From Deinococcales bacterium (lineage in GTDB: Bacteria > Deinococcota > Deinococci > Deinococcales > JAAFIG01), in contig JANNVX010000014.1 in assembly GCA_031414595.1 (NCBI GenBank), positions 1 through 64,000 on the forward strand: a stretch of DNA of 64,000 nucleotides, written 5' to 3'. Under the pieces are notes generated by a model. The model was not told where the DNA came from, ran no database searches, and was given only the letters and a program-made list of their open reading frames with translations. Within the stretch, counting starts at the first letter, position 1, and each line of letters begins with the position of its first letter. The translations under genes were made by a program, and so were the position numbers. Of the stretch, positions 10,215 to 59,162 are shown piece after piece.

Positions 10215-10219
10215 CCTAT
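10215..10219 (+). repeat. Target-site duplication, left copy (CCTAT)
   Basis: CCTAT immediately precedes the TGT terminus; an identical copy follows the ACA terminus at 59039-59043. Confidence 0.93.
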
Positions 10220-10371
10220 TGTGAATTGCTCTTCACTTTGTCAGTAAAATGAACCATTTTTAGCTCATTTTGTCGTATTGAATGGCAGTGTTATCGTTTG
10301 CCACGTCATAGTTCAATTTTATTTTCGTTTACCGTGTCACTATTAAAATTGTGCTATCGTTTACCAAGTCA
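10220..10371 (+). repeat. tnsAB-proximal transposon end with TnsB-binding sites
   Basis: Terminus TGTGAATTGCTCTTCACTTTGTCAGTAA. 18-bp repeats TTATCGTTTGCCACGTCA (10291), TTTTCGTTTACCGTGTCA (10322), CTATCGTTTACCAAGTCA (10354), plus a degenerate copy near 10270. Confidence 0.9.
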
Positions 10372-10398
10372 ATACATCTAAATCTAAAAGGAGTAGAT

Positions 10399-12864
10399 AT
10401 GAGTAGTATATATGCAAATCCAAACGGTCTGACAAGTCGCAAGGGAAACGCCCTGCTGACTAGGTTTAAAACCACTTTACCATTTGAGAGTACCATCGAG
10501 GAACGGCTGATTCGCGTATTAGATGCCGACCTCGATATCGTTACGGTTAAACGTGCCGAAACTGTTAAGGTTTTTTCATTCGATGGATCTTCACATGAGT
10601 ACACTGCTGACTTTGAGGTTTCCTTAATCAATCAGCAGACTTATGTTCTCGAGTGTAAACCTCAAAACTTACTACACGATATACTCGTCGAGGATTTATC
10701 AAAATGGACTGCTCGAGCAATGCTTTTAAAGCAACAAGACAAACCTTTACACATCATTACTGATGATGATTTACCCGATTCGTTGATACAAAAATCCATT
10801 TCATATACACCATTTTTCAATACGTTTCCATATCCAGACGTTGAAAAAACAGCGATGGAATTTCTTCAAGAACGGGGCTATTTACCACTTTCAACCTTGC
10901 GCCTACATATTAGAAGTATTACTCAACGTTCTTTTCCAGAAATTGACTCCACGCTTTACGGTTTAATCGCTCGCAACGAGTTAATTGCAAATGAAAGCAA
11001 TTTTTCGCCAAATTGCTTAGTTGACCTACCTAATCGACATCTCGAGCCAACGCGCACGCCACTTGGCAAATTAGTGCAGGCTTTATTAATTGATTTACCA
11101 AAACCTACCCCGCGCCTAGAACCAAAAATGAATCCAGCTCTAATACTCGAGCAAAAGTTTTTAGCGACAGGGCGTGGGCAAAAGGCGTTAGAATTATTTT
11201 CCGTTTACAATAATCCGAATGTGCCAATCACAAAACAATTGGCAAAAGAGTTGACACAGAAAATCGGTGTCAATGCCCGAACTCTTTTTCGATTTCGACT
11301 TTCCCTTATCGAAGCAGGCGCACCAAATATCATTTTTACTGAACTGGTTCCGTTTTTGACAGGTGCCACACCAATACGCCCAAAACGTCAGGTGGAAGAT
11401 AAAGTCGCAACGATTATCGAGGAGTTCTGTTTAAAAAACTACTTTGTGCCAGTTGGTTCACCCACAAACCATCGAGCCAGTACGATGGCAGAATTGCATG
11501 AAATGATCAGAAAAGCCTGCCTTCAAAAAGAGCTATCACCACCTGCCTACACAACAGTCAAACGTTTTGTGGAAAAAATCATCAAACGAGATCCAATCAA
11601 GGCAACAAAGGCTCGTGATGGACAAGAAAAAGCCGATTCACTTGAGGCACGACAAGGCAAATTGATTGTGCTGCGGTACGGAGAAGTAATCGCCGTGGAT
11701 TGCTCTCCGTGCGATGTTTTTTTCCAAAAATCTAAAGCCGAACTGCATTTCAAAATCCATAGTCGAGGCAAAAACCAACGAAAAGAGAATGCAACTCGCG
11801 GCAATTTTGTGACTGTAGCAGATATAGCCACTGGTCAGGTTCTCCGTTCAGTCATTTTTGAAAGTGGCATCGGTGGTGCGGAAATCTTGGAAGTTTTACG
11901 TGATGTTTTTCTGCGTGATCAAAAGCTCTTTTCGCAAAACGATATTGTCAGTATTCCACAAGGATTTGGTCTACCTCAACGAATTCGTTTAGATAGCGGT
12001 TCAGAATTTACCAACAAACAAGTGGCTCGAGTTTTAGCACATTTAGGGATAGAGCGTGTAACACGCAATAGCTACACCAAACACTATGGTGGTAGAGAAG
12101 AACGAATTATTGGAATCCTCAGTCACAGTCATCATGTATTGGTAGGTACAACCATGAACACCATTGAAAAGCGCGGTGTTTATCAGGCACAGGCAAATGC
12201 TGTTTTAGATTTTGCAGACTTAAACCGATTTCACCAAAAAAACGTGGAACGTTATAATAATTTGCACGCACCACTGCACGAATACACCCGTCATCAACAC
12301 GCTCAACATTTGGTAGACAATGGTGTAACTGCATGGCGAATTCTTAGCCAATCACAACTTGACTATGTGACCAACCGAATGCACCCTGAAGAAGATCGCT
12401 TGACCATTCAAAAAGGAATCTCAATGTTTGGGCTTAAATACCAATCAGATGCGCTTAGACCACTCATTATTCGCCGTGCGAAATTGAATATTAGCTACAA
12501 CCCTGATGACATCTGTGTTGTTAATGCCATACATCCCGACACTGGAGAACGAATACCACTCACAGCAGAATTACCCGAAGGTTTTGAGCCACCAATTAGC
12601 AAAAAACTCTGGTATGAATATAGGCATCGGGTTAGAAAAGCGGCGCGTCAAGCTCAGGATGCAGTCGAGACACCTCAAGAAATTGTAGCAGATGTAATGG
12701 CGAAGAAAACGGAGCGAACTATTGAACAAAAAAAGAGTAAGTCAAGACATAGAAGTGTACAAACATCGCCTTCTCAAAGTAGGAAAATCGTTGAGACTGG
12801 CGCACGCACCATCCAATCGGCTGTTATTGAATTTTTAGACAATCCAGTCGAAATTGAAGAATGA
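10399..12864 (+). CDS. tnsAB: TnsA-TnsB fusion transposase
   Basis: N-terminal TnsA-like nuclease (FESTIE, YTADFEV, LECKP). DDE core AVDCS / RLDSGSEF / GREERIIG. Mu-type C-terminus GISMFGLKY...YNPDDI. AGGAG RBS before ATG 10399. Confidence 0.88.
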   Translation: MSSIYANPNGLTSRKGNALLTRFKTTLPFESTIEERLIRVLDADLDIVTVKRAETVKVFSFDGSSHEYTADFEVSLINQQTYVLECKPQNLLHDILVEDLSKWTARAMLLKQQDKPLHIITDDDLPDSLIQKSISYTPFFNTFPYPDVEKTAMEFLQERGYLPLSTLRLHIRSITQRSFPEIDSTLYGLIARNELIANESNFSPNCLVDLPNRHLEPTRTPLGKLVQALLIDLPKPTPRLEPKMNPALILEQKFLATGRGQKALELFSVYNNPNVPITKQLAKELTQKIGVNARTLFRFRLSLIEAGAPNIIFTELVPFLTGATPIRPKRQVEDKVATIIEEFCLKNYFVPVGSPTNHRASTMAELHEMIRKACLQKELSPPAYTTVKRFVEKIIKRDPIKATKARDGQEKADSLEARQGKLIVLRYGEVIAVDCSPCDVFFQKSKAELHFKIHSRGKNQRKENATRGNFVTVADIATGQVLRSVIFESGIGGAEILEVLRDVFLRDQKLFSQNDIVSIPQGFGLPQRIRLDSGSEFTNKQVARVLAHLGIERVTRNSYTKHYGGREERIIGILSHSHHVLVGTTMNTIEKRGVYQAQANAVLDFADLNRFHQKNVERYNNLHAPLHEYTRHQHAQHLVDNGVTAWRILSQSQLDYVTNRMHPEEDRLTIQKGISMFGLKYQSDALRPLIIRRAKLNISYNPDDICVVNAIHPDTGERIPLTAELPEGFEPPISKKLWYEYRHRVRKAARQAQDAVETPQEIVADVMAKKTERTIEQKKSKSRHRSVQTSPSQSRKIVETGARTIQSAVIEFLDNPVEIEE

Positions 12865-12892
12865 TCAAGTGGTCTCTGTAAAGGAGATGATT

Positions 12893-13681
12893 ATGACAAA
12901 CCAACGACATACCTACCTTAACAATCGTGAACGCCTTTGGCATCCAGAGACTTCTCGAGAAAATTTATTGAGTGAACTAGATGCAATGATTAGTGACCCA
13001 CCACGTCACAGAACCGTGAGTATAGCAATTCCAGGTGATGCAAATGATGGCAAAACACAAATCATTTCACAGTTTCTGAAACGACACCCGCCAACCAATG
13101 AAGGAGACTACACAAAAATACCTGCTATTGCAGTTGAAATGTCAGATATTTCTACAGTTCAACAGCTCAGTCGGCGTTTACTCGAGGAGTCAAAAGACCC
13201 CGACCCAACTTCCGGAACACATGACGAACGAATGGCACGTTTCGTAAAACGAGCCAAAAAAATCGGACTCAGAATGGTCTTCCTTGATGAGTTTCACGAT
13301 TGTGCTGACACAAGCGGCAAAGGTAAACCATTCCTGCGTCTCCTTAAAAGCCTGCTGTCAAAGCGTATTTTTGTAGTCCCCGTTGGAATGATCGAAGTAC
13401 GCGAAGTATTGAAAAAGGATCCGCAACTTGCTAATCGATTTAACTTTCATAAAGGGCAATTGGCAAAAGTTACAAATTTGGAAGTTATTAAAACCTTAAC
13501 GGAAAAAATAGCTGGCAATCCCATTGTAATCACTGATGCCGGATTGGAGTATATCCTTGATAAAACAAAGGGTACACTTGGAGATATATTAGATTTTGTC
13601 GAACACACCCTACGAAAATATAACAACCTCGAGCTAACTAGCTTGGAAAATCAGTATTTATTGATGCCATTCTCAAAGTAA
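12893..13681 (+). CDS. tnsC: TnsC/TniB AAA+ ATPase
   Basis: Walker A GDANDGKT and Walker B VFLDEFH; follows the transposase; AAGGAG RBS before ATG 12893. Confidence 0.9.
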   Translation: MTNQRHTYLNNRERLWHPETSRENLLSELDAMISDPPRHRTVSIAIPGDANDGKTQIISQFLKRHPPTNEGDYTKIPAIAVEMSDISTVQQLSRRLLEESKDPDPTSGTHDERMARFVKRAKKIGLRMVFLDEFHDCADTSGKGKPFLRLLKSLLSKRIFVVPVGMIEVREVLKKDPQLANRFNFHKGQLAKVTNLEVIKTLTEKIAGNPIVITDAGLEYILDKTKGTLGDILDFVEHTLRKYNNLELTSLENQYLLMPFSK

Positions 13682-13862
13682 CAAATCGAACATGATACCT
13701 TTCAGCTCATAGTTTGAGAGGATTCAGATTACTCAAATCTTCTCAAACCTGCTCCATGAGTTCTTAAATTTCAAAGCACTTTTTTTCCATTAATAAACAC
13801 CATTCAGCGAAACGGCTAAAGGGCTTTTAGTGTGATTCTTAAAAACGAGTTAAACTTCTGAT

Positions 13863-14474
13863 ATGGCTTGGCTACTTGGAAGCACCATTACGCTTCGTAT
13901 TGGCGAAAACACCCGTATTTACACCGTTGCGGATGTTCCCGAAAGCGCACCAACTGGACACCTCGATTATCAAACACCACTCGGACAGGTGCTACTTGGC
14001 ACAAACATTGGTAAGATTGCAGTCTGGCAAAATGCCGCAGGAAAGTCGCTGCAAGCCACAGTGATCGCTGTGGAATCCTCGAGTTCGTTTGAGGCTGCGC
14101 CTTTGCATTATCACAGTGACGCAATCAAACAAAAATATGCTCTCGAGCAAGCTGAACATTGCCTTGTGGAATTTGGGCAAAGCCAAGATTTATGGAAACT
14201 AAGCCAAGCCAGCAGTTTTTTTCGTGATGCAAAACAACCCAAACGAGCTTTAGAAATCACTGAAGGAGTTGTTGGATCAACCCGCGCTTTACAATCAGCC
14301 TTGCTGACGACTCGAGCGGCGGCATACTTGGATTTGCATCATTCTCGAGAAGCCCAAAAACTTGTGCATCAAGCCGTGAAAATCTCAGGATGGACTTCGC
14401 AGCTTTACTCGGTTCAAGCCAATAAAGAGGAAGCCGCTCATTACGGGCGATTAGCAGAAGGCTTTCGGGGGTAG
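13863..14474 (+). CDS. GreA/GreB C-terminal-like domain fused to TPR-like helices
   Basis: YTVA...LDYQTPLGQVLLG...G resembles the GreA C-domain (ISxxSPLGxALLG); helical C-terminal half. Confidence 0.55.
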   Translation: MAWLLGSTITLRIGENTRIYTVADVPESAPTGHLDYQTPLGQVLLGTNIGKIAVWQNAAGKSLQATVIAVESSSSFEAAPLHYHSDAIKQKYALEQAEHCLVEFGQSQDLWKLSQASSFFRDAKQPKRALEITEGVVGSTRALQSALLTTRAAAYLDLHHSREAQKLVHQAVKISGWTSQLYSVQANKEEAAHYGRLAEGFRG

Positions 14475-14516
14475 GCTTTTACCTACAAAAACCATTTGTG
14501 CCTTAGAATTGCGGGA

Positions 14517-14990
14517 ATGGCACATTCTCCTGATGACTTATTTTCCCTTTTTGCTTCACCAGCACCAGTTTCTTTGGTTCAGACGTACACCGATGGCTCT
14601 TGTCTTGGCAATCCAGGTGTTGGTGGTTGGGCAGCCATTCTTGTTTCAGATGGTCAGGAACGAATACTGACTGGTGCAGATCCAGATACCACCAATAATC
14701 GAATGGAGTTTAAGGCATTACTCGAGGCAATTCGGGCTTTAGAGCAACCAAGTGCTGTGGCGGTTTGCACCGATTCAGAATTGCTGATTGGCTTACTTCA
14801 CAAAGGGTACAAACGGCGCAATCCAGAACTGAAAGCCCTATGTGCTGAAATTGAAATGATGGTGCAACACGGTGGACATCAGCTTGACTTTGATTGGGTA
14901 CGGGGTCATACGGGACACGAATTCAACGAGCGGGTTGATAAACTGGCGAAACAAGCCGCCCTTGAAGCACAAAGAAAGCGAGGCATGTGA
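14517..14990 (+). CDS. rnhA: Ribonuclease HI
   Basis: YTDGSCLGNPGVGGW, TTNNRME, TDS and WVRGHTGHEFNERVD motifs. Confidence 0.92.
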   Translation: MAHSPDDLFSLFASPAPVSLVQTYTDGSCLGNPGVGGWAAILVSDGQERILTGADPDTTNNRMEFKALLEAIRALEQPSAVAVCTDSELLIGLLHKGYKRRNPELKALCAEIEMMVQHGGHQLDFDWVRGHTGHEFNERVDKLAKQAALEAQRKRGM

Positions 14991-15550
14991 TTCCATCAGA
15001 GCAATTTGAACGGAATGCCGTGATGCTCGAGCAATTGCGGCAGTTTGATTGGCGGGAAGAATTTAAAGCCTTCTTGAAAATCACCCGTCAGCCACGTTTG
15101 ACATATTTGGATTTGAACGAACATGACTTTGCGGTTTTTATGGTCTTTGTTATGATTCGCGCTAATTCTGCTAAGCGCATCAAGCTCTGGCTGACTCGAG
15201 TTTGCAAGAGATGCAAGAAACGAGCTTATTCACGTTTTCCAGCTCGAGAATTTAACCTTCGGGCAGAAGAGCCTTGGGGTCATTACGGGTATCGGATTGT
15301 GCCAGATCTAATGGTGTACGATCAGAATGGAACTGTGGCTGTGTGTCTCGAGATTCATCGGACACACCGAATCAGTTTTGGTAAGCGCAGGCGCTTTTTA
15401 GAAATGGGAATGCGGTTTGTTGAACTACACTTTGAAGGTGTGCTGAAAGCTGCTTTGTGGTTTTTGGAAGGTAGGGAGAACATTGCTCTCAGCGTTGAGC
15501 ACGAATTACTGCTTGCTCCTGTTTGGTGCGGCAAATGCCGAAATAGGTAA
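14987..15550 (+). CDS. Hypothetical protein, possible PD-(D/E)xK (CoiA-like) nuclease with Cys pairs
   Basis: IVPDLMV...LEIHRTH motif; CKRC and CGKC pairs. Confidence 0.45.
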   Translation: MIPSEQFERNAVMLEQLRQFDWREEFKAFLKITRQPRLTYLDLNEHDFAVFMVFVMIRANSAKRIKLWLTRVCKRCKKRAYSRFPAREFNLRAEEPWGHYGYRIVPDLMVYDQNGTVAVCLEIHRTHRISFGKRRRFLEMGMRFVELHFEGVLKAALWFLEGRENIALSVEHELLLAPVWCGKCRNR

Positions 15551-15649: not shown

Positions 15650-18064
15650 CTAATTTAAGTATGGTCGCAGCTTTTTCAGTATTTGGCTCTCCGGATACTC
15701 TCTTAAAGTAATTTCCAACAACTTTTTGTAAGTTACCTTTGATCCAGATCGTATTTCTCGAAACGCCGACCTCCATTGTTCGGCATCAGTGTTGCCATGT
15801 GGCAAATCAGCGACGCGACCACCAGCCCGCTCCCAGAATTCCTTTAAGCGGTCAGGCACACTATCAATACACCACTGTTCAAAAACCTCAGTACGGTCAA
15901 TTTCTTCAACTGCATTGAGTGATCGGCTAAAAAACTGGAAAAATTTTTGGAGCGAAGTCAAAAGTTTAAAAATTGACTCAACAAATGTTGTAACAATGGG
16001 ACGAGAATCAGGTCTAAACTCATCACATAATCTCTGAGCTAAAGCCCATCGATTGCGTCTAACCATAACTCGACCAGTCGCTTTAAGAATACTTTCAGAC
16101 TTGCCTAGATTGCCACTTTGAGATATTGCGGCTTTTACAATTTTTTCGATATGGGCATCTTGGAGTAAGTCTGGCAGTGCCGTGACAACTCGAGTTGCAC
16201 CATCTAAGTTAAATTTTCCATCACTTACAAGTTCCAAAATTGTCTCGGACAGTTCTGTTTCAATGAATTCCCCAGATTCCCCTTGTCTCAGCCAATCATT
16301 GGCTGTGGTCATCAAGAAGCTTTTACGTGCAAGACTAGGCAACTTTTTCCAGACACTTGAACGATTGGGAAATGCCAATAAACTCGCATCAGATGTTGTT
16401 CCTAAACGCTCAAGAAGTTGGAGTGGAACTTGTAAATCATTCAACAATTCAGAAACTAGCAATGGCAATAAGCGCTTTGCTTGTCCACCCCAAGGATCTT
16501 TGGCTTTTAAACCGGCGATTGTCCAGATTTGGATGCCTGCCTCAGTAACCTCAAGAGCTTCCCATCCTGAATGGTCATTATTGAGATATGTTCCTGCGTG
16601 TTCCCAGACATCTCTTCGATCCATATTTTGTGCAGCACAAATCAATTCTCGAGTCCCCGCAATTAGCTGATATGCACGAACAATTCTTTCAGAAGCATCC
16701 AAAGGCGCATTTTGCAATAAATCCTGAAAACATTGTTCTGTTGGTGCTTTTTGCAAATGAATTGATGCAAACAACAGCCACCACTGACGATATTTCAAAT
16801 TCTCAATAAAAACATTGGGGAGTGTCTGATGGGCAATGGATGCAGCCAATTGTGTTTCCCAAGAATCCGCAACCAATTCAAAAAATGTAGTGCTGTTTTT
16901 GCTGCAAAGTCCAGCCCAAATAGCCTCGATAAGTTGAGGATTCCCTGACCGAAGTGCAGATTTTATTGCTGTTTGGATTGCGTAAATCCACCAAGATTGT
17001 GCCGTTCCACAGCGCGTGAACAAGTCAGACATGGATTGTACTTCATCTTGGATCAATTTAGAAGCTCGAGACTGAATGATATTTTGCAATGCAAATTGCT
17101 CAGTTAAGGGTATCAAACCGGCTACCCGTTTTAAGTCATCAATGGAAGCACCTACGAGTTGTTTTTGTAGAAATTCCCATAACTTGTACTGCTGCTCACA
17201 GACAAATTCAGCCTGAATTTCCAAGGTTATCAAATTTTCTAAAGCAGCAGCAGCGACATTAACGCTCCCTCTGCCTTCTTCAAGTTGCTTTAGAAGTAGA
17301 AACAGTATGCTCAGGGTATTCAAGGCATCCCATTTCCAAGCAGTCAAAGACTCGAGCCAAGGCAGAATAACAGGATTGCGATCCCCAGCCAGATGACGTA
17401 GTAATAAATCCTCTGCTTTAGGTACGATAAGTGAGTTTAGATTGTGCCAACGCGACTTTAGGCTATCTGGCACCAAGACTAATTTGGGGGTAAACCCAGA
17501 ATTGTGTAGTGCATCAGGATCAAAAATAGTACGAAATGAAAATTCCTCACGACCTTTTTGGGGTAAGGCATCCCAAAAATTCCAAATCTGAGGGATCAAA
17601 TTCAAATCCACCAAAATCACAGGGTTATTTTGTGATTGCACTATTGTGTATGAAAAAGCATAATCAGGCTCATCAACTTGCTCAGGGTAAGTATTTATAC
17701 CTGTTTTTGAAATGATTGTTGGGGACAGTGGTGTTGTCCAATTTTCATCTTCCAGAATCACCCATAAATCTCGAAGTTGTACTTGTGCTAAGTATTCAAT
17801 TTCTATTAAGACAGCGCGAGTGATGACACTTCCACGACGTGGAGCTTTATCATCTCGAGCCACTCGAAGTATCGAAAAAAAGGAAGTGTTTTTAACTTTG
17901 CTTCCAATGTAAAAAGGATCCCATTCAGGTATTTCAAAGCTGGCCCTCGGATAGTCTGAAATAGTCTCAAGCCACGCGATGGGTTTTGTGGTGGTTGAAC
18001 CAAGAAGAGCATGACCTACAGTGGGATGAATACCAAACAATGCTCGTTCAATTGGGAGGTTCAT
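15650..18064 (-). CDS. GAP1-N1-like protein with C-terminal EAD1 domain (GTPase-based conflict system)
   Basis: N-terminus ERALFG...GHALL...DKAPRRGSVITRAVLI; C-terminus FWERAGG.VADL...EQW...LLEITLREYP; operon context. Confidence 0.72.
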   Translation of the reverse strand: MNLPIERALFGIHPTVGHALLGSTTTKPIAWLETISDYPRASFEIPEWDPFYIGSKVKNTSFFSILRVARDDKAPRRGSVITRAVLIEIEYLAQVQLRDLWVILEDENWTTPLSPTIISKTGINTYPEQVDEPDYAFSYTIVQSQNNPVILVDLNLIPQIWNFWDALPQKGREEFSFRTIFDPDALHNSGFTPKLVLVPDSLKSRWHNLNSLIVPKAEDLLLRHLAGDRNPVILPWLESLTAWKWDALNTLSILFLLLKQLEEGRGSVNVAAAALENLITLEIQAEFVCEQQYKLWEFLQKQLVGASIDDLKRVAGLIPLTEQFALQNIIQSRASKLIQDEVQSMSDLFTRCGTAQSWWIYAIQTAIKSALRSGNPQLIEAIWAGLCSKNSTTFFELVADSWETQLAASIAHQTLPNVFIENLKYRQWWLLFASIHLQKAPTEQCFQDLLQNAPLDASERIVRAYQLIAGTRELICAAQNMDRRDVWEHAGTYLNNDHSGWEALEVTEAGIQIWTIAGLKAKDPWGGQAKRLLPLLVSELLNDLQVPLQLLERLGTTSDASLLAFPNRSSVWKKLPSLARKSFLMTTANDWLRQGESGEFIETELSETILELVSDGKFNLDGATRVVTALPDLLQDAHIEKIVKAAISQSGNLGKSESILKATGRVMVRRNRWALAQRLCDEFRPDSRPIVTTFVESIFKLLTSLQKFFQFFSRSLNAVEEIDRTEVFEQWCIDSVPDRLKEFWERAGGRVADLPHGNTDAEQWRSAFREIRSGSKVTYKKLLEITLREYPESQILKKLRPYLN

Positions 18065-18912
18065 GTCTCTCCAAACAACCAGTCAATTGGCAGTGTCAAA
18101 TCGCTTTTTTGCTCTCCGTTTGGCAGCACAAGAAAACCGGATTTCTCTGCGCCAGCTTCTCGAAAAGTATGTTGGAAATTTGGATCATCAAGTGAACCCC
18201 CTTGCGACGATAAACCATACACACGCATTGCACTATCTGCCCAGACTGTACGGATAAACTGCTCGAGCAATGGGCAGAGTTGCTTGAAATAGAATTCTGG
18301 AGTCAATTCAGTATTGACTTCATCAAAACAGGACAACATAATTGCCAATCGAGGTGAGGTTGTTCCTATTGGAGCAAATCCAGCACGTACCCACCACCAC
18401 ATTTGCAGTAGTTCAATCATTTCAATCTGTGACGATAATCTGCGTAAATTCACATTATCTGGTGCGTTGATTTCCGCTTGAGGCTTTGGGTTTTTCATCT
18501 CTTTTGCCACAGGAGGAGCATCCATTGTGGTCGTGGGTTCATTTATGGCACTTGGACGAATAAAAAGCATCCAAGCCGAGGACTCTTGAAATCCAGAAAT
18601 CCAGTTTCCTTCAATAGCTCGGTCACGAATCATTCGAGTTAATTGCTCACCATCATAATCAGGCAGTACAAGATCTATGGATTGACCATGACGATTCAAC
18701 AAAGGCAGTGTCATAGAATCATATGCACTGGTGGTACGTGGCGGTTTTTCACCGCGTTCATAGGCTTCAAGCGCCATTTGGAATAACTTTAAGCTTTCAG
18801 GCTGTCCCCTGAATTTTAGGCTGCTTTTTTGTGCAAGAATTCGCCCATAGACTTGGGTGCCATAACCTGTTTTCCCTGACTGTGAATATCCCATCAGCAA
18901 TAATTGACTCAT
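18061..18912 (-). CDS. TRAFAC-clade double-GTPase family protein
   Basis: GYSQSGKT, PPRT, DYDGE and LSCFDE motifs. Confidence 0.78.
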   Translation of the reverse strand: MSQLLLMGYSQSGKTGYGTQVYGRILAQKSSLKFRGQPESLKLFQMALEAYERGEKPPRTTSAYDSMTLPLLNRHGQSIDLVLPDYDGEQLTRMIRDRAIEGNWISGFQESSAWMLFIRPSAINEPTTTMDAPPVAKEMKNPKPQAEINAPDNVNLRRLSSQIEMIELLQMWWWVRAGFAPIGTTSPRLAIMLSCFDEVNTELTPEFYFKQLCPLLEQFIRTVWADSAMRVYGLSSQGGSLDDPNFQHTFREAGAEKSGFLVLPNGEQKSDLTLPIDWLFGET

Positions 18913-21107: not shown

Positions 21108-21156
21108 ATTAGCGGATATTTTATAACCAAATCCAAAAAATCACAAATCATCAATT

Positions 21157-41453: not shown

Positions 41454-41466
41454 GTTGGAGTGAATT

Positions 41467-43557: not shown

Positions 43558-43576
43558 GTGCAACCACGGAGGTTAT

Positions 43577-50298: not shown

Positions 50299-50688
50299 CT
50301 ACCTACCACGGTATCCAAAAACAAAAGCTGGAACTGGCTTGCTCATCGTCTCAAAGTCGGCTTTGACCTGTTGCCTATGATTGGTCTGACGGGTGCTACC
50401 AGTGGGTTGCAATTGGTCTATCCAAAGTTCCAAAGCATCTTCTGGTGAGTCTTCGTAAACCTCGAGTATTTTAGGTTCGGTCGGTTTGATGCTATCCCAA
50501 TGGATGTACCGATGTAAGCGTTGTAAATGCTGTTCTGGACTTTGACTCGAGGCAATCAGTCCAAGCATGTGTGATTCCTCGAGCATGATTGAACCTGCTT
50601 CTTCGCTTCTTAGAAGTTGCAGTAATTTACTGGTGTAGTCACGCCAGACTGTGTTGACTTCACGTTTTTGACGGTTTCTTTGGCTCAT
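50299..50688 (-). CDS. Hypothetical protein
   Basis: AGGAG RBS before MSQRNRQ; last gene of a minus-strand operon. Confidence 0.55.
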   Translation of the reverse strand: MSQRNRQKREVNTVWRDYTSKLLQLLRSEEAGSIMLEESHMLGLIASSQSPEQHLQRLHRYIHWDSIKPTEPKILEVYEDSPEDALELWIDQLQPTGSTRQTNHRQQVKADFETMSKPVPAFVFGYRGR

Positions 50689-50741
50689 ATGATTTACTCC
50701 TTTTACACATCTTTTGCTTGTAGTTGCTTTTATTTGAGAAA

Positions 50742-51086
50742 TTATCCAAACTTCCTTTGAACCAAACGCCAGCACAAAGTGACCATCAGACCAGCGAATA
50801 GAATCACTGCCCAACTTGGTAATTGCAGAATCACCGCCAAGCTGTATGAGTAAACCCCAGCACAAAAGGTTAAAGACCAGACCAATGGAATTTTGGCAAA
50901 TAATTGTAGAAACGCATCAAGATTATGCCCATAGTGCTTCTCGAGCAAGAATAGGATGATGGCAAAGACCATCAGGCTCGAGACAAGACAAAGCCCAATT
51001 GAGGCATTGACAGTCACGAGTAATCTTGTTGTCAAACCTCCAGCCAGAACTGCAAAAACAAGCAACTCGAGGTGAACCCTTTTCAT
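50742..51086 (-). CDS. Small membrane protein
   Basis: About four hydrophobic segments; ATGA overlap. Confidence 0.55.
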   Translation of the reverse strand: MKRVHLELLVFAVLAGGLTTRLLVTVNASIGLCLVSSLMVFAIILFLLEKHYGHNLDAFLQLFAKIPLVWSLTFCAGVYSYSLAVILQLPSWAVILFAGLMVTLCWRLVQRKFG

Positions 51087-51436
51087 GGTGTCTCCAAGTT
51101 CGCCTTGCCAAAAAACCGAGTATTCATTTGTTCTCGTAACCGATGATTCTCAAGGGTGAGTTTACCAAGTAAGCGCTCGAGTAGGATTTCTTGGGCTTTT
51201 GATCGCTCGAGTTGTTTTTGTAGATTCAAATTCTCGGTCTCGAGTAAACCAGATTGTTGTTCTGAACTAATAAAAGCATCATTACCAAAGCGTTCATATA
51301 AAGCTCGCCAAGAAAATAAGGTTGAAGCTAGGATTTTATGTTCTCGAGCCACAGCACTAGGTCGTTTGTGTTGTTCAATGACTTCCTTGACCATTCGCAA
51401 CTTAAATTCGGGGGTGTATAACTTTCGGTTTTTCAT
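51083..51436 (-). CDS. HTH_Tnp_1 (IS3 OrfA-like) DNA-binding protein
   Basis: RKLYTPEFKLRMV...VAREHKI..STLFSW...LERLLGKLTLEN. Confidence 0.75.
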   Translation of the reverse strand: MKNRKLYTPEFKLRMVKEVIEQHKRPSAVAREHKILASTLFSWRALYERFGNDAFISSEQQSGLLETENLNLQKQLERSKAQEILLERLLGKLTLENHRLREQMNTRFFGKANLETP

Positions 51437-53406: not shown

Positions 53407-53443
53407 TCTGCTAGTCAAAGTCAACCTGTAGCCTTCGCAAACG

Positions 53444-53671
53444 ATGCCTCGCTTTGCGGTAGACCCAGAGATAATACGTGTTCGCATTCGTCAATTACGA
53501 CTCGAACAGGGTTTAACCCAAGATGAAGTAGCAGCCCGAAGTGGAATCAACGAAAAGCACTATCAAGACCTCGAGACGGGAAGGAAAGCCTTTAATCCTA
53601 CTCTCGAGACCCTCAATGCTTTTGCTTTGACCTTTGAAGTGGAACTGGCTGTCCTTCTAAAATCGGAGTAA
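53444..53671 (+). CDS. XRE-family HTH regulator upstream of the tniQ-cas operon
   Basis: IRQLRLEQGLTQDEVAARSGI..KHYQDLETG..FNPTL. Confidence 0.88.
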   Translation: MPRFAVDPEIIRVRIRQLRLEQGLTQDEVAARSGINEKHYQDLETGRKAFNPTLETLNAFALTFEVELAVLLKSE

Positions 53672-53838: not shown

Positions 53839-54798
53839 GTGTTTCATATGATTGAAACTGCCAAAAACCCACACTGGGCAATCCACCCTCAAATCCAAAA
53901 TGGTGAGTTGTTTGAATCTTGGATTGTGCGGTTGAGTGCCGAAAATGGCTTTCGCCTGCGCGAAGTGATACAGCAATTAGAACTCAAAAATGTCTTTTGT
54001 TCTAAAAACAATGTTGAGATCAAAGCCGTAAGAAAATTGTCGGATGCAACTGGGATACTTCAATATCGAATCCTCGAATCCCATCTTGGGTGGCTTCAAA
54101 ATCACTCTGATCTTGCCTATGCAAAAACATTTACCCTTTGGGGGCGTAGCCCATCGGACACGATACAGCATTTTAAGTTTTGCCCAGACTGTTTTGCTAA
54201 TCAAGACAAGCCACACATACTGCTTGACTGGGCATTTGAAATCACTCAGTTCTGCACGGTACATCAACGACCTTTACTCGAGCGTTGTCCAAAATGCCGC
54301 GAGCCACTTCAGTTTAGTTTGCTTTTCAACAAAACAATACAACCCGAAATCTGCTCTAATTGCAGCACAAAAATGAAAATCCATGCTCGGAAACACAGCA
54401 TTGATTTCAAATTTGGTCTCGAGCTACAAAGACAAATCTTGAGCCTCCGAAAACATGACCAAGTATCACCAAAACAATCACGAATTATCCCAGCAAAAAC
54501 GTTTTTATCAATTGTTGAGCGGATATTTTATCGCTTTACCAATTTACCCAACCAGCAAACCTTCTCTAAATTGACTGATCTCTCAGTTATGTTGCTGGAT
54601 GATCGTTTTTCGCAAGCGTACCGAAGAATAAACGCCCTGACCATTTGTGGCTGGCTTTTAGCCGACCCAATAGTACGAATTATTACTCTGCGCCAATTCA
54701 CGCAAAAGTATGTTGAATACTCGACGGCTATTCAAATTATTTCTGTTCTGAATTATGCACAAGCGACATTGCAACCACGTAATGGAACTTACCAATGA
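53839..54798 (+). CDS. tniQ: TniQ target selector
   Basis: HPQIQNGELFESWIVRLSAENG; zinc motifs FCPDC, W...CTVH..PLLERCPKC, CSNC; ATGA overlap with cas5. Confidence 0.92.
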   Translation: MFHMIETAKNPHWAIHPQIQNGELFESWIVRLSAENGFRLREVIQQLELKNVFCSKNNVEIKAVRKLSDATGILQYRILESHLGWLQNHSDLAYAKTFTLWGRSPSDTIQHFKFCPDCFANQDKPHILLDWAFEITQFCTVHQRPLLERCPKCREPLQFSLLFNKTIQPEICSNCSTKMKIHARKHSIDFKFGLELQRQILSLRKHDQVSPKQSRIIPAKTFLSIVERIFYRFTNLPNQQTFSKLTDLSVMLLDDRFSQAYRRINALTICGWLLADPIVRIITLRQFTQKYVEYSTAIQIISVLNYAQATLQPRNGTYQ

Positions 54799-55529
54799 GC
54801 TTATTTGCACTCGAGGTTTGGGGCGATTACGCCTGTTTCACACGTCCTGAAACAAAAGTTGAAAGACTTAGTTACCCTGTGATGACTCCAAAAATTGCTC
54901 GAGCAATTTTTGGAGCGATCTACACCCAGTTTTCTGGGGGTGAAACACCTCACACAACTTTTTTCTGGCAAGTCAGGCGAATCGAAATCCTCAATCCAAT
55001 TGTGTTTATTTCGTTCTCACACAATGAAGTCAAAGGGAGAGCAAGCACTTACAACATTTTGCGCTCAGTTCATCAGCCCGACGCACTTCAACCGCTCATG
55101 GCAGATGGCAATGATGATTCCAGCAAAGAGACTGGGCGCACCCAACGCCAATCAATGATTTTGCGCGAGGTGCGTTATCGGATATTCGCTGAACCAGTGC
55201 TGTACAATCCAAACCAAAGCAATCTGAAGCAAATCACCCACGAATTTGCTCGACGTGCAGCCAAAGGCAAGTGTTTCCATCAGCCTTTTTTGGGATGCCG
55301 TGAATACATAGCATTTTTCCAGCCAGTTCCGCCCACATTTGGCGTTGGCGCACCGATTTTTGAAGATATTGGTTGGATGATCTACGATACGTTTGATCTA
55401 TCACAGCCAAGCTCAATCACCATTACACCAAGCATTAGTATCTTCAGGGCGACGATTCAAAACGGTGTTCTCGAGATACCGCCGTATGATAGCAACGAGG
55501 TACGCAAACTAGGACTGGGAGTGATTTGA
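54795..55529 (+). CDS. cas5c: Type I-C Cas5 (Cas5c/Cas5d)
   Basis: WGDYACFTRPETKVERLSYPVMTP, RTQR..ILREVRY and GKCFHQPFLGCRE motifs. Confidence 0.95.
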   Translation: MSLFALEVWGDYACFTRPETKVERLSYPVMTPKIARAIFGAIYTQFSGGETPHTTFFWQVRRIEILNPIVFISFSHNEVKGRASTYNILRSVHQPDALQPLMADGNDDSSKETGRTQRQSMILREVRYRIFAEPVLYNPNQSNLKQITHEFARRAAKGKCFHQPFLGCREYIAFFQPVPPTFGVGAPIFEDIGWMIYDTFDLSQPSSITITPSISIFRATIQNGVLEIPPYDSNEVRKLGLGVI

Positions 55530-57343
55530 TGCTCGAGGCTCTGATCGAATATGCTCACCGAAAACAATTGGTTCTCGAGCCTGGTTTTGCTGGCAGGCGT
55601 ATTCATTGGTTAATAAATCTTGACTCTAAAGGACAGGTTCAATCCGTTTCTTTTGCAGATGAATCCAAGCGACGAGCGAAGTTGTTTCCATGCTGTCCAG
55701 ACCTGCAACAGCCCCAACTGATCAGGCTGCCACATGTACTTAAACAGCTTGGAATACTATCAACACGAGCAGCCCACTTTTTAATGGATTCATGTTGTCG
55801 TGTGGTGCTTTATCCAGATAACGATCAGTTGGAACAACATAAGACTTTTCTAAACCTAATCCAACTAGCAAGCCAAGAAGTTAGGATATTACGACCAGTT
55901 GCAAAAATGCTTTCAAAGCAAAAGGAAATTGGTCGAGTACATCAAGCCCTCATTCAATTGAAAGCCACAAAAACCGACAAAGTATCGTTTTCGGTGGATG
56001 GAGTGGTCATACTTGAGGATACAACGTGGCATGATTGGTGGCGAAGATTTTATATAACCACAAGCTCAAAGCAAAATTCAGATCGTATGATCAGTCTGGT
56101 TTCAGGAGAAGTTATTTCGCCTGCCAGAACACATCCAGCGCTTAAATCCTTGGTCGAAAAAAAAGTAACTTTTGGAGCGGCAGTAGTGGCTGTGCATAAA
56201 ACTGCCTTTACCTCATATGGGCTAAAACAAGCCGAACACGCCGCCATGTCAGGAGCATCTGCCGCTGCCTATCATGCAGCTCTGGAAGATTTATTGAGAC
56301 AAACTAGGATGGTTCATGGTACGAAAGCGGTGTATTGGTACAACCAAGAAATTCCACTACAATCCGACCCACTGGCGCTGATGTTGCGCGATGAACGCAT
56401 AGATAACATCAACTACCGAAAACAGCTTGAGGATATTCTTTCACAAGCTCGAAAAGATGATTCTCGAGATGTTGCTTGCCATATTGCTGTGTTGCGTGAA
56501 AATGAAAATCGGGTCAGGATTTCATTGTACAAAACGCTGCGATTGAGTGAAGTGGCGGCTGGACTTATTAAATGGCTCGAGGATACTTCAATTGATGGTT
56601 TGGCAGGTACTGGTTTCGTAGTTGATCTACCCAGCGAATTTGCTGGTATGTTTCGTCAACGAGTTGGGGGAAAAAGCGATAAGGCACTTGACTTTCAACC
56701 ACTACTGATTGTGTTGTACCAGCAGATGCTCAACCCCACTCTACCCATTGCGATGGCTCTGGTTGATTATTCACTTAAATCGGTCATTACCAGCTTTGTA
56801 AAAGGCAAATTTCAGGCAGCATTTGCAACCAAGGCAGATTTACCATTGCGACAAAATTTGGTGATTTACATGGGTATTTTGAAAGCATTTTGCCGTCACT
56901 CAGGTGATCGAGACCTATTGCAACAACTGAATCCTAATCATCCTAATTCACACTATCAAACAGGTCGGCTCACTGCGATGCTCGAGCGTATTGATGGGTT
57001 GAATAATCCTCCACATGTTGAACTCAAAAACCAAAGGTTGTTTTTGCAAATTATGACGACACCGAACAATATCCTGCAAGAAAAAATGGCTTCCAGTCAA
57101 CGAAAGCTCAAGCGACTTGAAAGAACTCGACGATGGTTCAGCCTATACTTACAAAAAGAAATGAATACGATTTGGGAGAATCTTGATGCTAAGGTTCGGA
57201 GTAATAGCTCAGTAAAACGCCAATGCTTATTCCTATTGGGTTACTTTCAACAAACCATTTCTCAATTGATTGAACCTGTGCAAAACGATGATTTTTACAA
57301 TTTGGAGTCGAGAACCTTTAAGGAGCAACATGAAACCGATTGA
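55526..57343 (+). CDS. cas8c: Type I-C large subunit Cas8c (Csd1), divergent
   Basis: MLEALIEYA...EPGF...W.I.LD..G, LVSGE...ARTHP, AFTSYGLKQ, YQTGRL.A.LE, Q..FLLGYFQQ. Confidence 0.88.
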   Translation: MMLEALIEYAHRKQLVLEPGFAGRRIHWLINLDSKGQVQSVSFADESKRRAKLFPCCPDLQQPQLIRLPHVLKQLGILSTRAAHFLMDSCCRVVLYPDNDQLEQHKTFLNLIQLASQEVRILRPVAKMLSKQKEIGRVHQALIQLKATKTDKVSFSVDGVVILEDTTWHDWWRRFYITTSSKQNSDRMISLVSGEVISPARTHPALKSLVEKKVTFGAAVVAVHKTAFTSYGLKQAEHAAMSGASAAAYHAALEDLLRQTRMVHGTKAVYWYNQEIPLQSDPLALMLRDERIDNINYRKQLEDILSQARKDDSRDVACHIAVLRENENRVRISLYKTLRLSEVAAGLIKWLEDTSIDGLAGTGFVVDLPSEFAGMFRQRVGGKSDKALDFQPLLIVLYQQMLNPTLPIAMALVDYSLKSVITSFVKGKFQAAFATKADLPLRQNLVIYMGILKAFCRHSGDRDLLQQLNPNHPNSHYQTGRLTAMLERIDGLNNPPHVELKNQRLFLQIMTTPNNILQEKMASSQRKLKRLERTRRWFSLYLQKEMNTIWENLDAKVRSNSSVKRQCLFLLGYFQQTISQLIEPVQNDDFYNLESRTFKEQHETD

Positions 57344-58295
57344 AAATCGCTACGAATTTCTACTCATTTTTGATTGCGAAAATGGCAATCCCAATGGTGA
57401 TCCCGACGCAGAAAACCTTCCAAGAATAGACTCCCAAGACGGTCATGGATTGGTCTCTCCAGAATCAATCAAACGAAAGATTCGTGACCGTATTGCCCTG
57501 AATGGTATAGAAATCTTTATCCAACACCAAACCAATCTCAATCGTGCGATTTTTGCGGCGCGTGAACAGAGTAATACCTTAAAAGACAAATCCACCAAGA
57601 TAACATTACAAAACGCCGCTGCAATTATGTGTAAACGATTTTATGATGTTCGGACTTTCGGTGGGGTAATGACTACAGGTGTCAATTCAGGTCAATTGAC
57701 TGGACCTGTGCAGATTACATTAGCTCGCAGTGTTGACCCAGTTCATATCATGGATTGGGGAATTACTAGAGTGGCTGTTGCCGAAACTGTCCAAGGAGCA
57801 AAAACCCTGGCTGACTACGAACAATGGGAATCCGAACAAAATGCTTCAGATTTAAGAACTATGGGACGGAAAAGCCTGATTCCATATGGATTATTCGTAG
57901 CCAAAGGCTGCATCAGTGCGTTTGATGCGGAAAGAACAGGGTTTTCAGAAGCTGACCTCGAATTGCTCTGCGAAAGCATGTTAGACATGTTTGAACACAG
58001 TCGCAGTGCCAGTCGTGGTTTGATGACCACAAGGCGCTTGGTAATTTTTAAGCATATAGGATCATCCAAAGACCCCAAAGTGCGCCTCAAACAAGCTAAA
58101 CTAGGGCGTATTCCAGCACAAAATTTGCTCGAGTTAGGCAGAATTGTTCGCATTTCTCGCGTCAATAAAGATGCTTTTCCTCGAGCCTATCACGATTACG
58201 ACGTGGTTGTGGATACCAGTGCATTACCAGAAACCATTGAAGTGCTGGATTTAGATTTGTGGGATGAAGAAAAGTTTCGCTCGGCTTGGGTTTAA
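57330..58295 (+). CDS. cas7c: Type I-C Cas7 (Csd2)
   Basis: NRYEF..FDCENGNPNGDPDAENLPRID, KRKIRD, FYDVRTFG.VM, GPVQ, TMGRK..IPYGL, TGFSE.DL; AAGGAG RBS. Confidence 0.96.
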   Translation: MKPIENRYEFLLIFDCENGNPNGDPDAENLPRIDSQDGHGLVSPESIKRKIRDRIALNGIEIFIQHQTNLNRAIFAAREQSNTLKDKSTKITLQNAAAIMCKRFYDVRTFGGVMTTGVNSGQLTGPVQITLARSVDPVHIMDWGITRVAVAETVQGAKTLADYEQWESEQNASDLRTMGRKSLIPYGLFVAKGCISAFDAERTGFSEADLELLCESMLDMFEHSRSASRGLMTTRRLVIFKHIGSSKDPKVRLKQAKLGRIPAQNLLELGRIVRISRVNKDAFPRAYHDYDVVVDTSALPETIEVLDLDLWDEEKFRSAWV

Positions 58296-58467
58296 GCGAA
58301 CCCTTAGTGGCACTAAAATCACCTATAGTTCGCGGAAACCAAATTTCGTCTATGACGTGATTCTTCTGTGCGATATTGAGTAGTGATCAAAAAATTAATG
58401 TTGAATTATTGGGTTCGCAGAATGTATTCCTTTTTGACTTTGTACTATGAAAAGATATACATTTACA
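58296..58467 (+). promoter_or_regulatory. Type I-C CRISPR leader
   Basis: GCGAACC (58296)...GTTCGC (58328) inverted motif, a second GGTTCGC (~58412), AT-rich; TTGACT-N18-TACATT just before repeat 1. Confidence 0.7.
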
Positions 58468-58645
58468 GTCTCAATGGCATCTAGCCGTCGAGACGCTTGA
58501 AACCAAACCCGACGAAAGGATGCACATTACGATAATCCGTCTCATGGGCATCTAGCCGTCGAGACACTTGAAACATTGCCATCTAAAGTCCAATCACATA
58601 CATTGGCATGTCTCTATAGCTTTTAGACATTGCGATGCTCGAGAT
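58468..58645 (+). CRISPR. Mini CRISPR array: 2 intact plus 1 degenerate 36-bp repeats, two 35-bp spacers
   Basis: R1 58468-58503 GTCTCAATGGCATCTAGCCGTCGAGACGCTTGAAAC; R2 58539-58574; R3 58610-58645 (24/36 identical to R1). Hairpin GTCTC..GAGAC and TTGAAAC 3' end. Confidence 0.9.
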
Positions 58646-58717
58646 TTGGAACTTTACAAAAAAAGTCTTTGCAGTAGCGACAATAAACCGTTAGCACCAC
58701 TACATTCTCTTAAAACC

Positions 58718-58746
58718 TTGAATAAACATAGGACATGAGCTAGGAT
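58718..58746 (+). promoter_or_regulatory. Candidate sigma70 promoter for the homing crRNA
   Basis: TTGAAT-N17-TAGGAT, followed by TACA and the isolated repeat. Confidence 0.5.
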
Positions 58747-58750
58747 TACA

Positions 58751-58808
58751 GCCTCAACGGTACTTAGCCATCGAGACGCTTGAAACTAACCAATTGACCT
58801 ATATGCCC
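58751..58808 (+). CRISPR. Delocalised atypical repeat plus tRNA-targeting homing spacer
   Basis: Repeat GCCTCAACGGTACTTAGCCATCGAGACGCTTGAAAC (58751-58786). Spacer TAACCAATTGACCTATATGCCC matches the minus strand of 59086-59107 at 18/22. Confidence 0.88.
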
Positions 58809-58892
58809 GAATTTATTTTTTCCAAAGCCTCTTGTTCCAGATATGCGGAGGTCAAAGCCAAAAGGTTTGCTTGAAAGGAGTATTGGGATCAC

Positions 58893-59038
58893 TGACACGG
58901 TAAACGATAAGAAATGATATAGAATTTAACTCGAGTTCGTTAAACACAATGTTTATTTAGGAAAGTTCAATCAGTGCCACGGTAAACGATATTGACATTC
59001 ATAAAAATAATTACTGACAAAGTAAACGATAATTCACA
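58893..59038 (-). repeat. tRNA-proximal transposon end with TnsB-binding sites
   Basis: TGACACGGTAAACGATAA (58893), TGCCACGGTAAACGATAT (58975), degenerate copy (58993), TGACAAAGTAAACGATAA (59015), ending AATTCACA. Inverted relative to the sites at the other end. Confidence 0.92.
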
Positions 59039-59043
59039 CCTAT
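59039..59043 (+). repeat. Target-site duplication, right copy (CCTAT)
   Basis: Identical to 10215-10219. Confidence 0.93.
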
Positions 59044-59072
59044 TTGCCAAATGTGCATTTTACGGTTAATCT
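59044..59072 (+). promoter_or_regulatory. Candidate tRNA promoter
   Basis: TTGCCA-N17-TAATCT, 13 bp upstream of the tRNA. Confidence 0.6.
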
Positions 59073-59085
59073 AGGGGTCGTGCGA

Positions 59086-59162
59086 GGGTCTATAGCTCAA
59101 TCGGTTAGAGCGGAGGTCTCATAAACCTTAGGTTCGGGGTTCAAGTCCCCGTGGACCCACCA
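59086..59162 (+). tRNA. tRNA with CAT anticodon (Ile2 or elongator Met)
   Basis: Acceptor stem GGGTCTA/TGGACCC, anticodon arm GAGGT-CTCATAA-ACCTT, GGTTCAAGTCC T-arm, encoded CCA. G1-C72 pairing argues against initiator fMet. Confidence 0.95.

Follow-up and report, generated by a model that had tools for sequence, protein, structure and literature searches.

Is a Tn7-like transposon led to a transfer RNA (tRNA) gene by the guide RNA of a captured type I-C Cascade? The question is raised by a 48,819-bp element in a 64,000-nt stretch of DNA from a Deinococcales bacterium (contig JANNVX010000014.1 of assembly GCA_031414595.1, positions 1 to 64,000; this whole stretch is called the window here), which carries type I-C cas genes beside its transposition genes and lies next to a tRNA-Met gene. 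In our assessment, the element is probably an active or recently active type I-C CRISPR-associated transposon (CAST) that homes to tRNA-Met by means of its CRISPR RNA (crRNA). It displays the hallmarks of such transposons: TnsB and TnsC encoded within ends bounded by a 5-bp duplication, TniQ encoded together with effector genes, an effector that lacks nuclease and adaptation genes, and a guide to the element's own site. We infer RNA-guided transposition from these sequence features.

The element occupies positions 10220–59038 of the window, begins with TGTGAATT and ends with AATTCACA, and sits between xth, the gene for exonuclease III, and tRNA-Met, just upstream of the tRNA-Met gene. Its terminal 28 nt, at 10220–10247 on the tnsAB side (plus strand, starting TGTG) and at 59011–59038 on the CRISPR side (minus strand), are identical at 23 of 28 positions when inverted. 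Both ends hold arrays of TnsB-type sites, seven copies in all of a ~22-nt TATCGTTTACCGTGTCA-like repeat, every one of them facing inward. Four lie at the tnsAB end, comprising a degenerate terminal site within the inverted repeat and three internal sites at 10284–10375 (plus strand; cores 10292–10304, 10323–10335 and 10355–10367), spaced 31–32 bp apart. The other three lie at the CRISPR-side end, 58889–59038 (minus strand; cores 58897–58909, 58979–58991 and 59019–59031), with spacings of 40 and 82 bp. At up to two mismatches, the 13-nt core has eight matches in the window, of which five are within 150 bp of the ends. G+C content is about 0.40–0.45 within the element against 0.46–0.49 in its flanks. 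Because the names of transposon ends differ between papers, only the gene side of each end is stated here, and a claim that end polarity is reversed relative to Tn7 has been dropped.

The element is flanked by two copies of CCTAT, at 10215–10219 and 59039–59043, where an unoccupied relative has one. When the xth protein was used as a query against 185,579 species genomes, it returned 73 loci; the closest, with an xth 96% identical, is L001, the 1,861-bp contig JANNEE010000610.1 of a Deinococcales metagenome-assembled genome (MAG). Positions 1–819 of this contig align with window positions 59857–59039 at 95.6% and positions 814–1861 with window positions 10220–9161 at 91.8%, and the junction reads ...TTATTCTCCTATTTGCC..., with one CCTAT, giving an unoccupied xth-CCTAT-tRNA-Met site. 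L002, next in closeness, does not extend far enough on the junction side to inform on an empty site. Because L001 carries the uninterrupted site, both element boundaries are fixed to the base, and this sequence comparison proves a true transposition event with a 5-bp duplication, the signature of the Tn7 family. An earlier sequence-only reading of the window had proposed TGT/ACA ends with 28-bp inverted repeats, arrays of TnsB sites and a CCTAT duplication at both ends, all of which we reproduce, and had suggested looking for an empty xth-CCTAT-tRNA site in relatives, which L001 supplies.

Within the CRISPR-side part of the element, tniQ (53848–54798, plus strand; Pfam TniQ 4.5e-16) encodes a core-only protein of 316 aa with two zinc-binding clusters, whose residues C115, C118, C139 and H142, and C150, C153, C172 and C175, are invariant. 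Its structural model (predicted local distance difference test score, pLDDT, 88.4) best matches, over 327 columns and its whole length, 8fcu_P, the Cascade-bound TniQ of a type I-B CAST, and the first 17 fold matches listed are all CAST TniQ or TnsD chains. The protein has no C-terminal extension of the TnsD type; in published descriptions, long C-terminal extensions belong to TnsDs, and CAST TniQs consist of the core only (PMC10293859). TniQ proteins of this kind are rare. The word-indexed database holds three clusters, and a HMMER pass over 1.84 billion representatives gave 500 matches at E ≤ 0.001, only 14 of them at ≤ 1e-10. These 14 include about a dozen full-length relatives (297–334 aa, 28–36% identity), and relatives share the two zinc clusters and a C-terminal LLDDRFS...N-A-L motif.

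The stop codon of tniQ is shared with the start of cas5c in an ATGA overlap at 54795–54798, which argues for translational coupling of the two genes. The cas5c gene (54795–55529, plus strand), of the pre-crRNA endonuclease family, scores 114 bits against TIGR01876 (cutoff 85) and matches I-C Cas5 structures in the PDB at 1e-32 to 7e-26. It is followed by cas8c (Csd1; 55529–57343, plus strand), with a match to Pfam Cas_Csd1 of 1.8e-57, above the Pfam cutoff, and to I-C Cas8 in the PDB of 6e-13. Last comes cas7c (Csd2; 57330–58295, plus strand), whose start codon, an ATG preceded by AAGGAG, lies 14 nt ahead of the cas8c stop, and which scores 277 bits against TIGR02589 (cutoff 182) and 2e-68 against 7kha_B. 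All three proteins find their PDB matches in the I-C Cascades of D. vulgaris and N. lactamica. On the sequence matches in Pfam, NCBIfam and the PDB, the predicted effector is type I-C and complete, with its proteins full length over the family profiles. In addition, residues 469–578 of Cas8c weakly match the Cas11 chain 8g9s_H (E = 0.0048), and candidate internal starts lie at 56918 and 56978. The C-terminal region of the predicted Cas8c thus looks Cas11-like, which fits the published origin of the I-C small subunit, a protein identical to the Cas8c C terminus (PMC7684278).

Genes for interference and adaptation are missing from this set. A Pfam scan of all 52 element open reading frames (ORFs) of at least 100 aa, together with 7 of the 90 ORFs of 60–99 aa (those not mostly nested), found no Cas1, Cas2, Cas3, Cas4 or Cas6, no second TniQ or TnsD, and no TnsE; 12 scanned flank ORFs gave no cas match, and 13 nested or flanking ORFs outside the element were left out of the scan. 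These absences hold for the element, and a defence-type I-C system could possibly act in trans from the rest of the host genome. Because cas1, cas2, cas3, cas4 and cas6 are absent, tniQ overlaps cas5c, and the only TniQ is core-only with a CAST-like fold, the Cascade appears to have been domesticated. The sequence-only reading had described a Cas3-less type I-C Cascade without cas1, cas2 or cas4, coupled by ATGA to tniQ and followed by a CRISPR at the end opposite tnsAB and tnsC, with a single TniQ and no long TnsD; profile and structure matches, the overlap and the one TniQ-domain ORF among those scanned all bear it out.

Immediately 5′ of tniQ lies a gene for a small Xre/CapH-like helix-turn-helix (HTH) regulator of 75 aa (53444–53671, plus strand; Pfam HTH_3 3.1e-11; PADLOC HTH_VI and capH), which may control the tniQ-cas operon. 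Rybarski et al. 2021 (bioRxiv 10.1101/2021.08.16.456562) mention elements of the Xre type beside CAST arrays.

Downstream of cas7c, a mini CRISPR array (58468–58652, plus strand) consists of repeat 1 (58468–58503), spacer 1 (58504–58538), repeat 2 (58539–58574), spacer 2 (58575–58609) and a degenerate third repeat (58610–58652). The two 36-nt repeats are identical at 33 of 36 positions and each fold into a hairpin that leaves a single-stranded tail of 9 nt (z = −3.8 and −3.0), and both spacers have 35 nt, the commonest I-C spacer length (bioRxiv 10.1101/137067). A promoter-like site directly 5′ of repeat 1 (58434–58463, plus strand) is a weak consensus match, in a region with 3 such sites against 2.5 expected. 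After a gap of 98 nt from the degenerate third repeat comes an atypical repeat (58751–58786, plus strand), which shares 30 of 36 positions with repeat 1 and conserves the 3′ handle part. It precedes the homing spacer (58787–58826, plus strand), about 40 nt long up to the next hairpin, and a terminal degenerate repeat of about 50 nt (58827–58876, plus strand) with a GCCUC...GAGGU hairpin and an end that resembles the repeat tail. An Rfam search of 58200–59300 gave the tRNA as its only credible match.

Positions 1–22 of the homing spacer match the bottom strand of the tRNA-Met gene, the landmark of the attachment site (59086–59162, plus strand; anticodon CAT; ARAGORN; Rfam tRNA 72.3 bits), at 18 of 22 nucleotides. 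The protospacer runs on the minus strand from 59107 down to 59086, that is, from tRNA nucleotide 22 to nucleotide 1, with CTC at 59110–59108 on the non-target strand at the side of the protospacer-adjacent motif (PAM). None of 2000 shuffled spacers scored 18 of 22 within 200 bp of either end, and only the tRNA-Met match and the spacer itself reach this score in the window. The four mismatched spacer positions are 6, 12, 18 and 19; a set of four would include 6, 12 and 18 by chance with a probability of 19/7315 = 0.0026. Type I complexes flip out every sixth base, and mismatches at such positions caused no drop in transposition by an I-D CAST (PMC9881144). A homing guide had been reported as visible in the window; the tRNA-Met match stands, over 22 nt and not over the full spacer.

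The CCTAT duplication lies 65–69 nt from spacer position 1, on the PAM-distal side, and 42 bp upstream of the first tRNA-Met base. An I-D CAST inserts 75 ± 6 bp from its PAM (PMC9881144), and the geometry of target and insertion here appears qualitatively as expected of a CAST. The duplication also adjoins TTGCCA, 17 nt and TAATCT (59044–59072), which on a consensus reading would be the tRNA-Met promoter; it was missing from the sites of a promoter scan, its second hexamer having no more than 3 of 6 matches. If it is the promoter, the insertion leaves it intact.

At the opposite end, tnsAB (10399–12864, plus strand) encodes a TnsA–TnsB fusion of 821 aa that starts with an ATG behind AAGGAG (the listed ORF runs from GTG 10351). 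The protein itself has weak, sub-threshold Pfam matches to TnsA_N, rve and Mu-transpos_C and none in NCBIfam. A single-sequence PDB search gave no match either, so that a family profile and a fold search were needed. The family is tiny, with 9 clusters among 5.8 billion at 40–61% identity, and its named members come from a Deinococcota MAG, Deinococcus budaensis and D. marmoris; Mu-transpos_C is found in 9 of 9 members and TnsA_N in 7 of 9. The family profile picks up the catalytic part of PseTnsAB (8e-14) and Tn6677 TnsB (3.5e-8) in the PDB and does not match E. coli Tn7 TnsB at E ≤ 1. The AlphaFold model has a mean pLDDT of 66.5, with about 90 over the N-terminal 230 residues and a poorly modelled DDE core. 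Its best fold match is chain 9bw1_M of a TnsABCD transpososome (5.6e-20), and it also matches the TnsB of ShCAST and E. coli Tn7 and the Tn7 TnsA structures 1t0f and 1f1z.

The catalytic residues of both halves can be read from the predicted protein. E30, D71 and E85-C-K87 make up a PD-ExK arrangement, and D434, D532 and E568 a DDE triad with a 36-residue spacing between D532 and E568; both sets are conserved across the 9 family members, and the nuclease and DDE motifs are, on this reading, intact. A tblastn search against plasmids returned 1706 records, all below 60% identity, with no close plasmid relative, and in the 15 records listed, identity reaches at most 28.3% over 58–66% of the query. 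The next gene, tnsC (12854–13681, plus strand; TTG 12854, with an alternative start at ATG 12887), encodes a minimal AAA+ regulator of 275 aa with a Pfam TniB match of 2.5e-31, best PDB matches to VchTnsC (3e-7) and ShTnsC (6e-4), and the motifs GDANDGKT (Walker A) and FLDEF (Walker B). The assignment of tnsAB and tnsC to one end, also made from the letters alone, is confirmed by Pfam, family profile and fold matches.

These parts suggest the following mechanism. Transcripts of the repeats would be cut by Cas5c, and the crRNA would assemble Cas5c, about seven Cas7c, Cas8c and a Cas11c made from inside cas8c. This Cascade would bind DNA beside a TTC-like PAM and leave it undegraded, because no Cas3 is present. 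TniQ, co-translated with the Cascade genes, would dock at the PAM-distal end, the Cas7 head, and nucleate TnsC, which would in turn recruit TnsAB to cut both strands at each end. The element would be pasted about 65–69 bp from the PAM side of the target with its CRISPR-side end nearest the target. In this scheme, the guide behind the atypical repeat would home to the conserved 5′ part of tRNA-Met and give an intergenic insertion upstream of the tRNA, and spread to mobile DNA would be the task of the two ordinary spacers.

Several observations weigh against crRNA-directed homing by a type I-C CAST, most of them concerning the guide. Spacer positions 23–40 show 2 of 18 identities, the complementarity stopping exactly at the 5′ end of the tRNA, and integration by I-F3 systems requires PAM-distal pairing. 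Because the PAM-distal spacer is unmatched, a full R-loop cannot form at tRNA-Met. A search of the homing spacer against the 73 xth loci gave no better or full-length target, the best being the same tRNA in L001, again at 18 of 22. A partial R-loop may be sufficient; the mature homing crRNA may be short, given a T-run at 58812–58821; or the guide may have been shaped in a host with a different region upstream of the tRNA. The sole visible target carries CTC at the PAM side, not the optimal TTC that is the canonical I-C PAM, although CTC is a functional interference PAM in the I-C systems of B. halodurans and L. pneumophila (bioRxiv 10.1101/137067). The ordinary spacers are without convincing phage or plasmid targets: spacer 1 has no match in the phage collection, spacer 2 has four phage records at E = 0.4, which is chance level, and neither matches the plasmid collection.

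A further point of this kind concerns Cas8c itself: its NCBIfam score of 152 bits is below the curated cutoff of 218.65, for which reason the protein must be called divergent. The relatives of Cas8c speak for a CAST. In the word-indexed database, Cas8c has 17 detectable relatives, of which the two closest are 50% and 41% identical, and canonical I-C Cas8c proteins reach at most 30% identity. The longest-contig figures of the two closest, both metagenomic, are 10,633 bp (50%) and 23,129 bp (41%), and a TniQ relative (47%) and a TnsAB relative (53%) have these figures too, in that order. This suggests a small clade of transposon-linked I-C Cas8c proteins, in which the link consists of equal longest-contig figures only.

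The main rival is protein-guided homing, in which a TnsD-like TniQ would recognise the tRNA-Met region and the Cascade would be kept for occasional plasmid targeting or not used for homing. The short pairing of the guide (22 of about 40 nt) speaks for it. Many fused-TnsAB Tn7-like elements do sit at tRNA sites recognised by TnsD-like proteins (PMC9881144), and the best PDB sequence match of the element's TniQ is a TnsD (8v32_J, 2.5e-4). However, the element encodes one TniQ only, and this 316-aa protein is without the long DNA-binding extension of TnsDs (PMC10293859); TnsD-directed insertions of I-D and I-B2 elements fall about 29 bp after tRNA-Leu, as against 42 bp before tRNA-Met here; and both the guide match and the 6-12-18 pattern of mismatches would have to be coincidence (0 of 2000 shuffles; P ~0.003). 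We therefore consider homing by protein unlikely.

It is still less probable, in our view, that the cas genes are decayed cargo, a passive I-C defence locus that has lost cas3 and the adaptation genes and to which tniQ is merely adjacent. Defence systems are common cargo of Tn7-like elements, cas genes close to tnsC have in some cases been judged cargo (PMC10293859), and the remaining cargo of this element is related to defence and conflict. Decay is at odds with three cas ORFs that are full length over their family profiles, with the ATGA overlap of tniQ and cas5c, which argues for co-translation, and with an array that holds a guide to the element's own attachment site; moreover, the loss of exactly cas3, cas1, cas2 and cas4 is a known CAST pattern (Rybarski et al. 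2021). The Cas3-less Cascade might also bind DNA under RNA guidance independently of the transposase, serving as a programmable repressor or taking part in competition among mobile elements, in the manner proposed for type IV systems. Lacking a nuclease, the Cascade can do no more than bind, and the guide covers the 5′ part of the tRNA beside its likely promoter (on the consensus reading above; the scan did not list it), but binding as such leaves unexplained the coupling to tniQ, the place inside the transposon end and the fixed geometry of target and insertion, and we give this idea very little credence.

A more specific version of crRNA-directed homing can be proposed tentatively, and as a whole we hold it to be possible rather than probable. 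In it, a rare Tn7-like lineage with fused TnsAB, whose named relatives are Deinococcota, would have captured a I-C Cascade independently, in an event distinct from the nine in print (below); the guide would pair with the tRNA over 22 nt only, through a partial R-loop or a short crRNA; the element, needing six genes (about 7.8 kb of coding DNA), would be more compact than any other type I CAST known; and its insertion point would lie nearer to the target than those of other type I CASTs, the CRISPR-side end being proximal.

How does the element compare with systems already described? Nine putative metagenomic type I-C CASTs were reported by Rybarski et al. 2021, with tniQ adjoining tnsABC and with TnsB and TnsC phylogenetically close to Tn7; they are described without CRISPR array, self-targeting spacer, tRNA or attachment site. 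The present element shares with them TnsB, TnsC, TniQ, Cas5, Cas7 and Cas8c, and the lack of Cas3, Cas1 and Cas2, and all are known as sequences only. It differs in that tniQ overlaps cas5c and lies about 40 kb from tnsC, in having an array, a homing guide, a tRNA-Met and a proven attachment site, and, as far as descriptions can be compared, in its fused TnsA–TnsB, whose profile matches I-F3 TnsB and not E. coli Tn7 TnsB. Type I-C CASTs were still putative and array-less in Hu et al. 2024 (PMC11300857), a 2024 review counts I-C among the captured subtypes, and I-C goes unmentioned in the main text of Faure et al. 2023. The complete I-C defence system that McDonald et al. 2019 (PMC6360697) describe is cargo of an I-F3 element and a different thing. 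Full-text searches, with subscription-only papers and supplements outside their reach, found no experimental study of I-C CASTs; the statement in the sequence-only reading that I-C Cascades near Tn7 genes were noted only in computational surveys agrees with Rybarski et al. 2021 and Hu et al. 2024.

In layout, the element resembles the I-F3 systems Tn6677 (VchCAST) and PseCAST, which have tnsABC at one end and tniQ-cas and the array across the cargo (Rybarski et al. 2021), a homing guide behind an atypical repeat (PMC11300857) and a single core TniQ, and which supply the closest PDB sequence relatives of its TnsC and TnsB core. I-F3 systems, however, use Cas8/5, Cas7 and Cas6 (Cas7f and Cas6f), where the element has Cas5c, Cas8c and Cas7c without Cas6, and the TnsAB of the element is naturally fused. 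In this element the target is closest to the CRISPR side, and tnsAB is 48 kb away; Vibrio I-F3 elements have tnsABC towards the attachment site (PMC6360697). The element also inserts closer to its target, about 25–34 bp beyond the end of the guide, against about 43–49 bp for I-F3.

Other features point to I-B2 and I-D CASTs (PmcCAST, McCAST and CyCAST). These have fused TnsAB and give the best fold matches, 9bw1_M for TnsAB and a I-B CAST TniQ for TniQ, and they share with the element a tRNA attachment region and a 5-bp duplication; their small subunit is encoded inside the large-subunit gene (PMC9881144), as is predicted for the element. They use both TniQ and TnsD, with protein-directed homing about 29–33 bp after tRNA-Leu (PMC9881144, PMC10293859), where the element has a single TniQ, an RNA guide to tRNA-Met and insertion upstream of the gene. 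The Cascade subtype also differs, and sequence similarity is very low, TnsAB having no single-sequence PDB match.

With V-K systems (ShCAST), the element shares a minimal TnsC, 276 aa there and 275 aa here. V-K elements have tRNA-linked homing, with a guide that is reportedly short, and insert about 60–66 bp from the PAM, against 65–69 in the element. They differ in a single Cas12k effector, in the absence of TnsA, so that cointegrates form, and in a TniQ of about 160 aa. Canonical I-C systems such as those of D. vulgaris and N. lactamica resemble the element in the Cas5c, Cas8c and Cas7c families, the Cas11-like Cas8c C terminus, 35-nt spacers and a hairpin repeat; the element differs from them in having no Cas3, Cas4, Cas1 or Cas2, in lying inside a transposon and in its coupling to tniQ. 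Its repeat has 36 nt, compared with the 32-bp I-C repeat of Vibrionaceae (PMC6360697). By its predicted gene content, the element is a CAST of the already named I-C subtype, on a different backbone of fused TnsAB and minimal TnsC, and as far as could be found it is the first I-C CAST for which ends, array, guide, target and empty site are all in hand.

For inserting large DNA programmably and without double-strand breaks, CASTs are the foremost natural route, and to our knowledge characterisation has so far been limited to the I-F3, I-B, I-D and V-K types. With three genes and no Cas6, type I-C has the smallest Cascade. What has been published on I-C CASTs amounts to lists of genes that lack array, ends and target, and the existence of I-C CASTs alone would not astonish a specialist; this element makes the open question directly testable, offering exact ends, a six-gene machinery, guide, target, candidate PAM, and insertion distance and orientation. 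A further, mechanistic question is how integration could be licensed by a guide with a match of no more than 22 nt. If the independent-capture reading is true, a Cas6-less Cascade can license TniQ and TnsC via the Cas7 head without full PAM-distal pairing.

The host lineage is poorly represented in collections. The nearest flank relative, L001, is from a Deinococcales MAG and the named TnsAB relatives are from Deinococcota, yet the G+C content of the window is only about 0.40–0.49; after L001, the next xth relatives (at most 54%) are from Burkholderiales. A search of the 185,579 species genomes with two peptide patterns from Cas8c matched 26 stretches, of which none was confirmed as a relative, and at this two-pattern sensitivity neither the element nor close relatives are among those genomes.

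Between the transposition genes and the targeting operon lies about 39 kb of cargo (13863–53272), in which Pfam and PADLOC recognise conflict and defence genes, a polymorphic toxin, secretion genes and an insertion-sequence fragment. Directly after tnsC, at 13863–15550 (plus strand), genes for a GreA/GreB C-terminal-like protein, an RNase H and a 187-aa ORF with a 4-nt overlap may be accessory to transposition or cargo. They are followed at 15650–22326 (minus strand) by a five-gene GTPase-associated conflict system made up of a GAP1-N1/EAD1 protein, DO-GTPase1, DO-GTPase2, GASH and an EAD1-SIR2 effector; the SIR2 part of the effector matches the LmuA and ThsA defence models, and the other four genes have no PADLOC model. 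At 22689–26647 (minus strand), the gene for a 940-aa TPR protein overlaps by 4 nt with the next one, whose 379-aa product partially matches the beta-lactamase2 family.

Encoded at 27187–38786 (plus strand) is a 3,646-aa RHS-repeat protein with a PT-HINT domain, a polymorphic-toxin architecture. Its C-terminal toxin domain has no Pfam match, and a SUKH-1 (SMI1/KNR4) immunity-type gene comes after it. Consecutive genes for a Big_7 Ig-domain protein, an S8 subtilase and a secretin (40263–44821, plus strand), together with one for a Chlam_PMP-repeat protein (47046–49043, plus strand), possibly form a secretion or surface module carried as cargo. An Xre-MbcA/ParS-type antitoxin is encoded at 49141–49584 (plus strand), with no RES or other toxin partner recognised alongside. 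An IS3-type HTH_Tnp_1 ORF (51083–51436) and unassigned ORFs downstream of it, together spanning 50299–51436 (minus strand), resemble a fragment of an insertion sequence.

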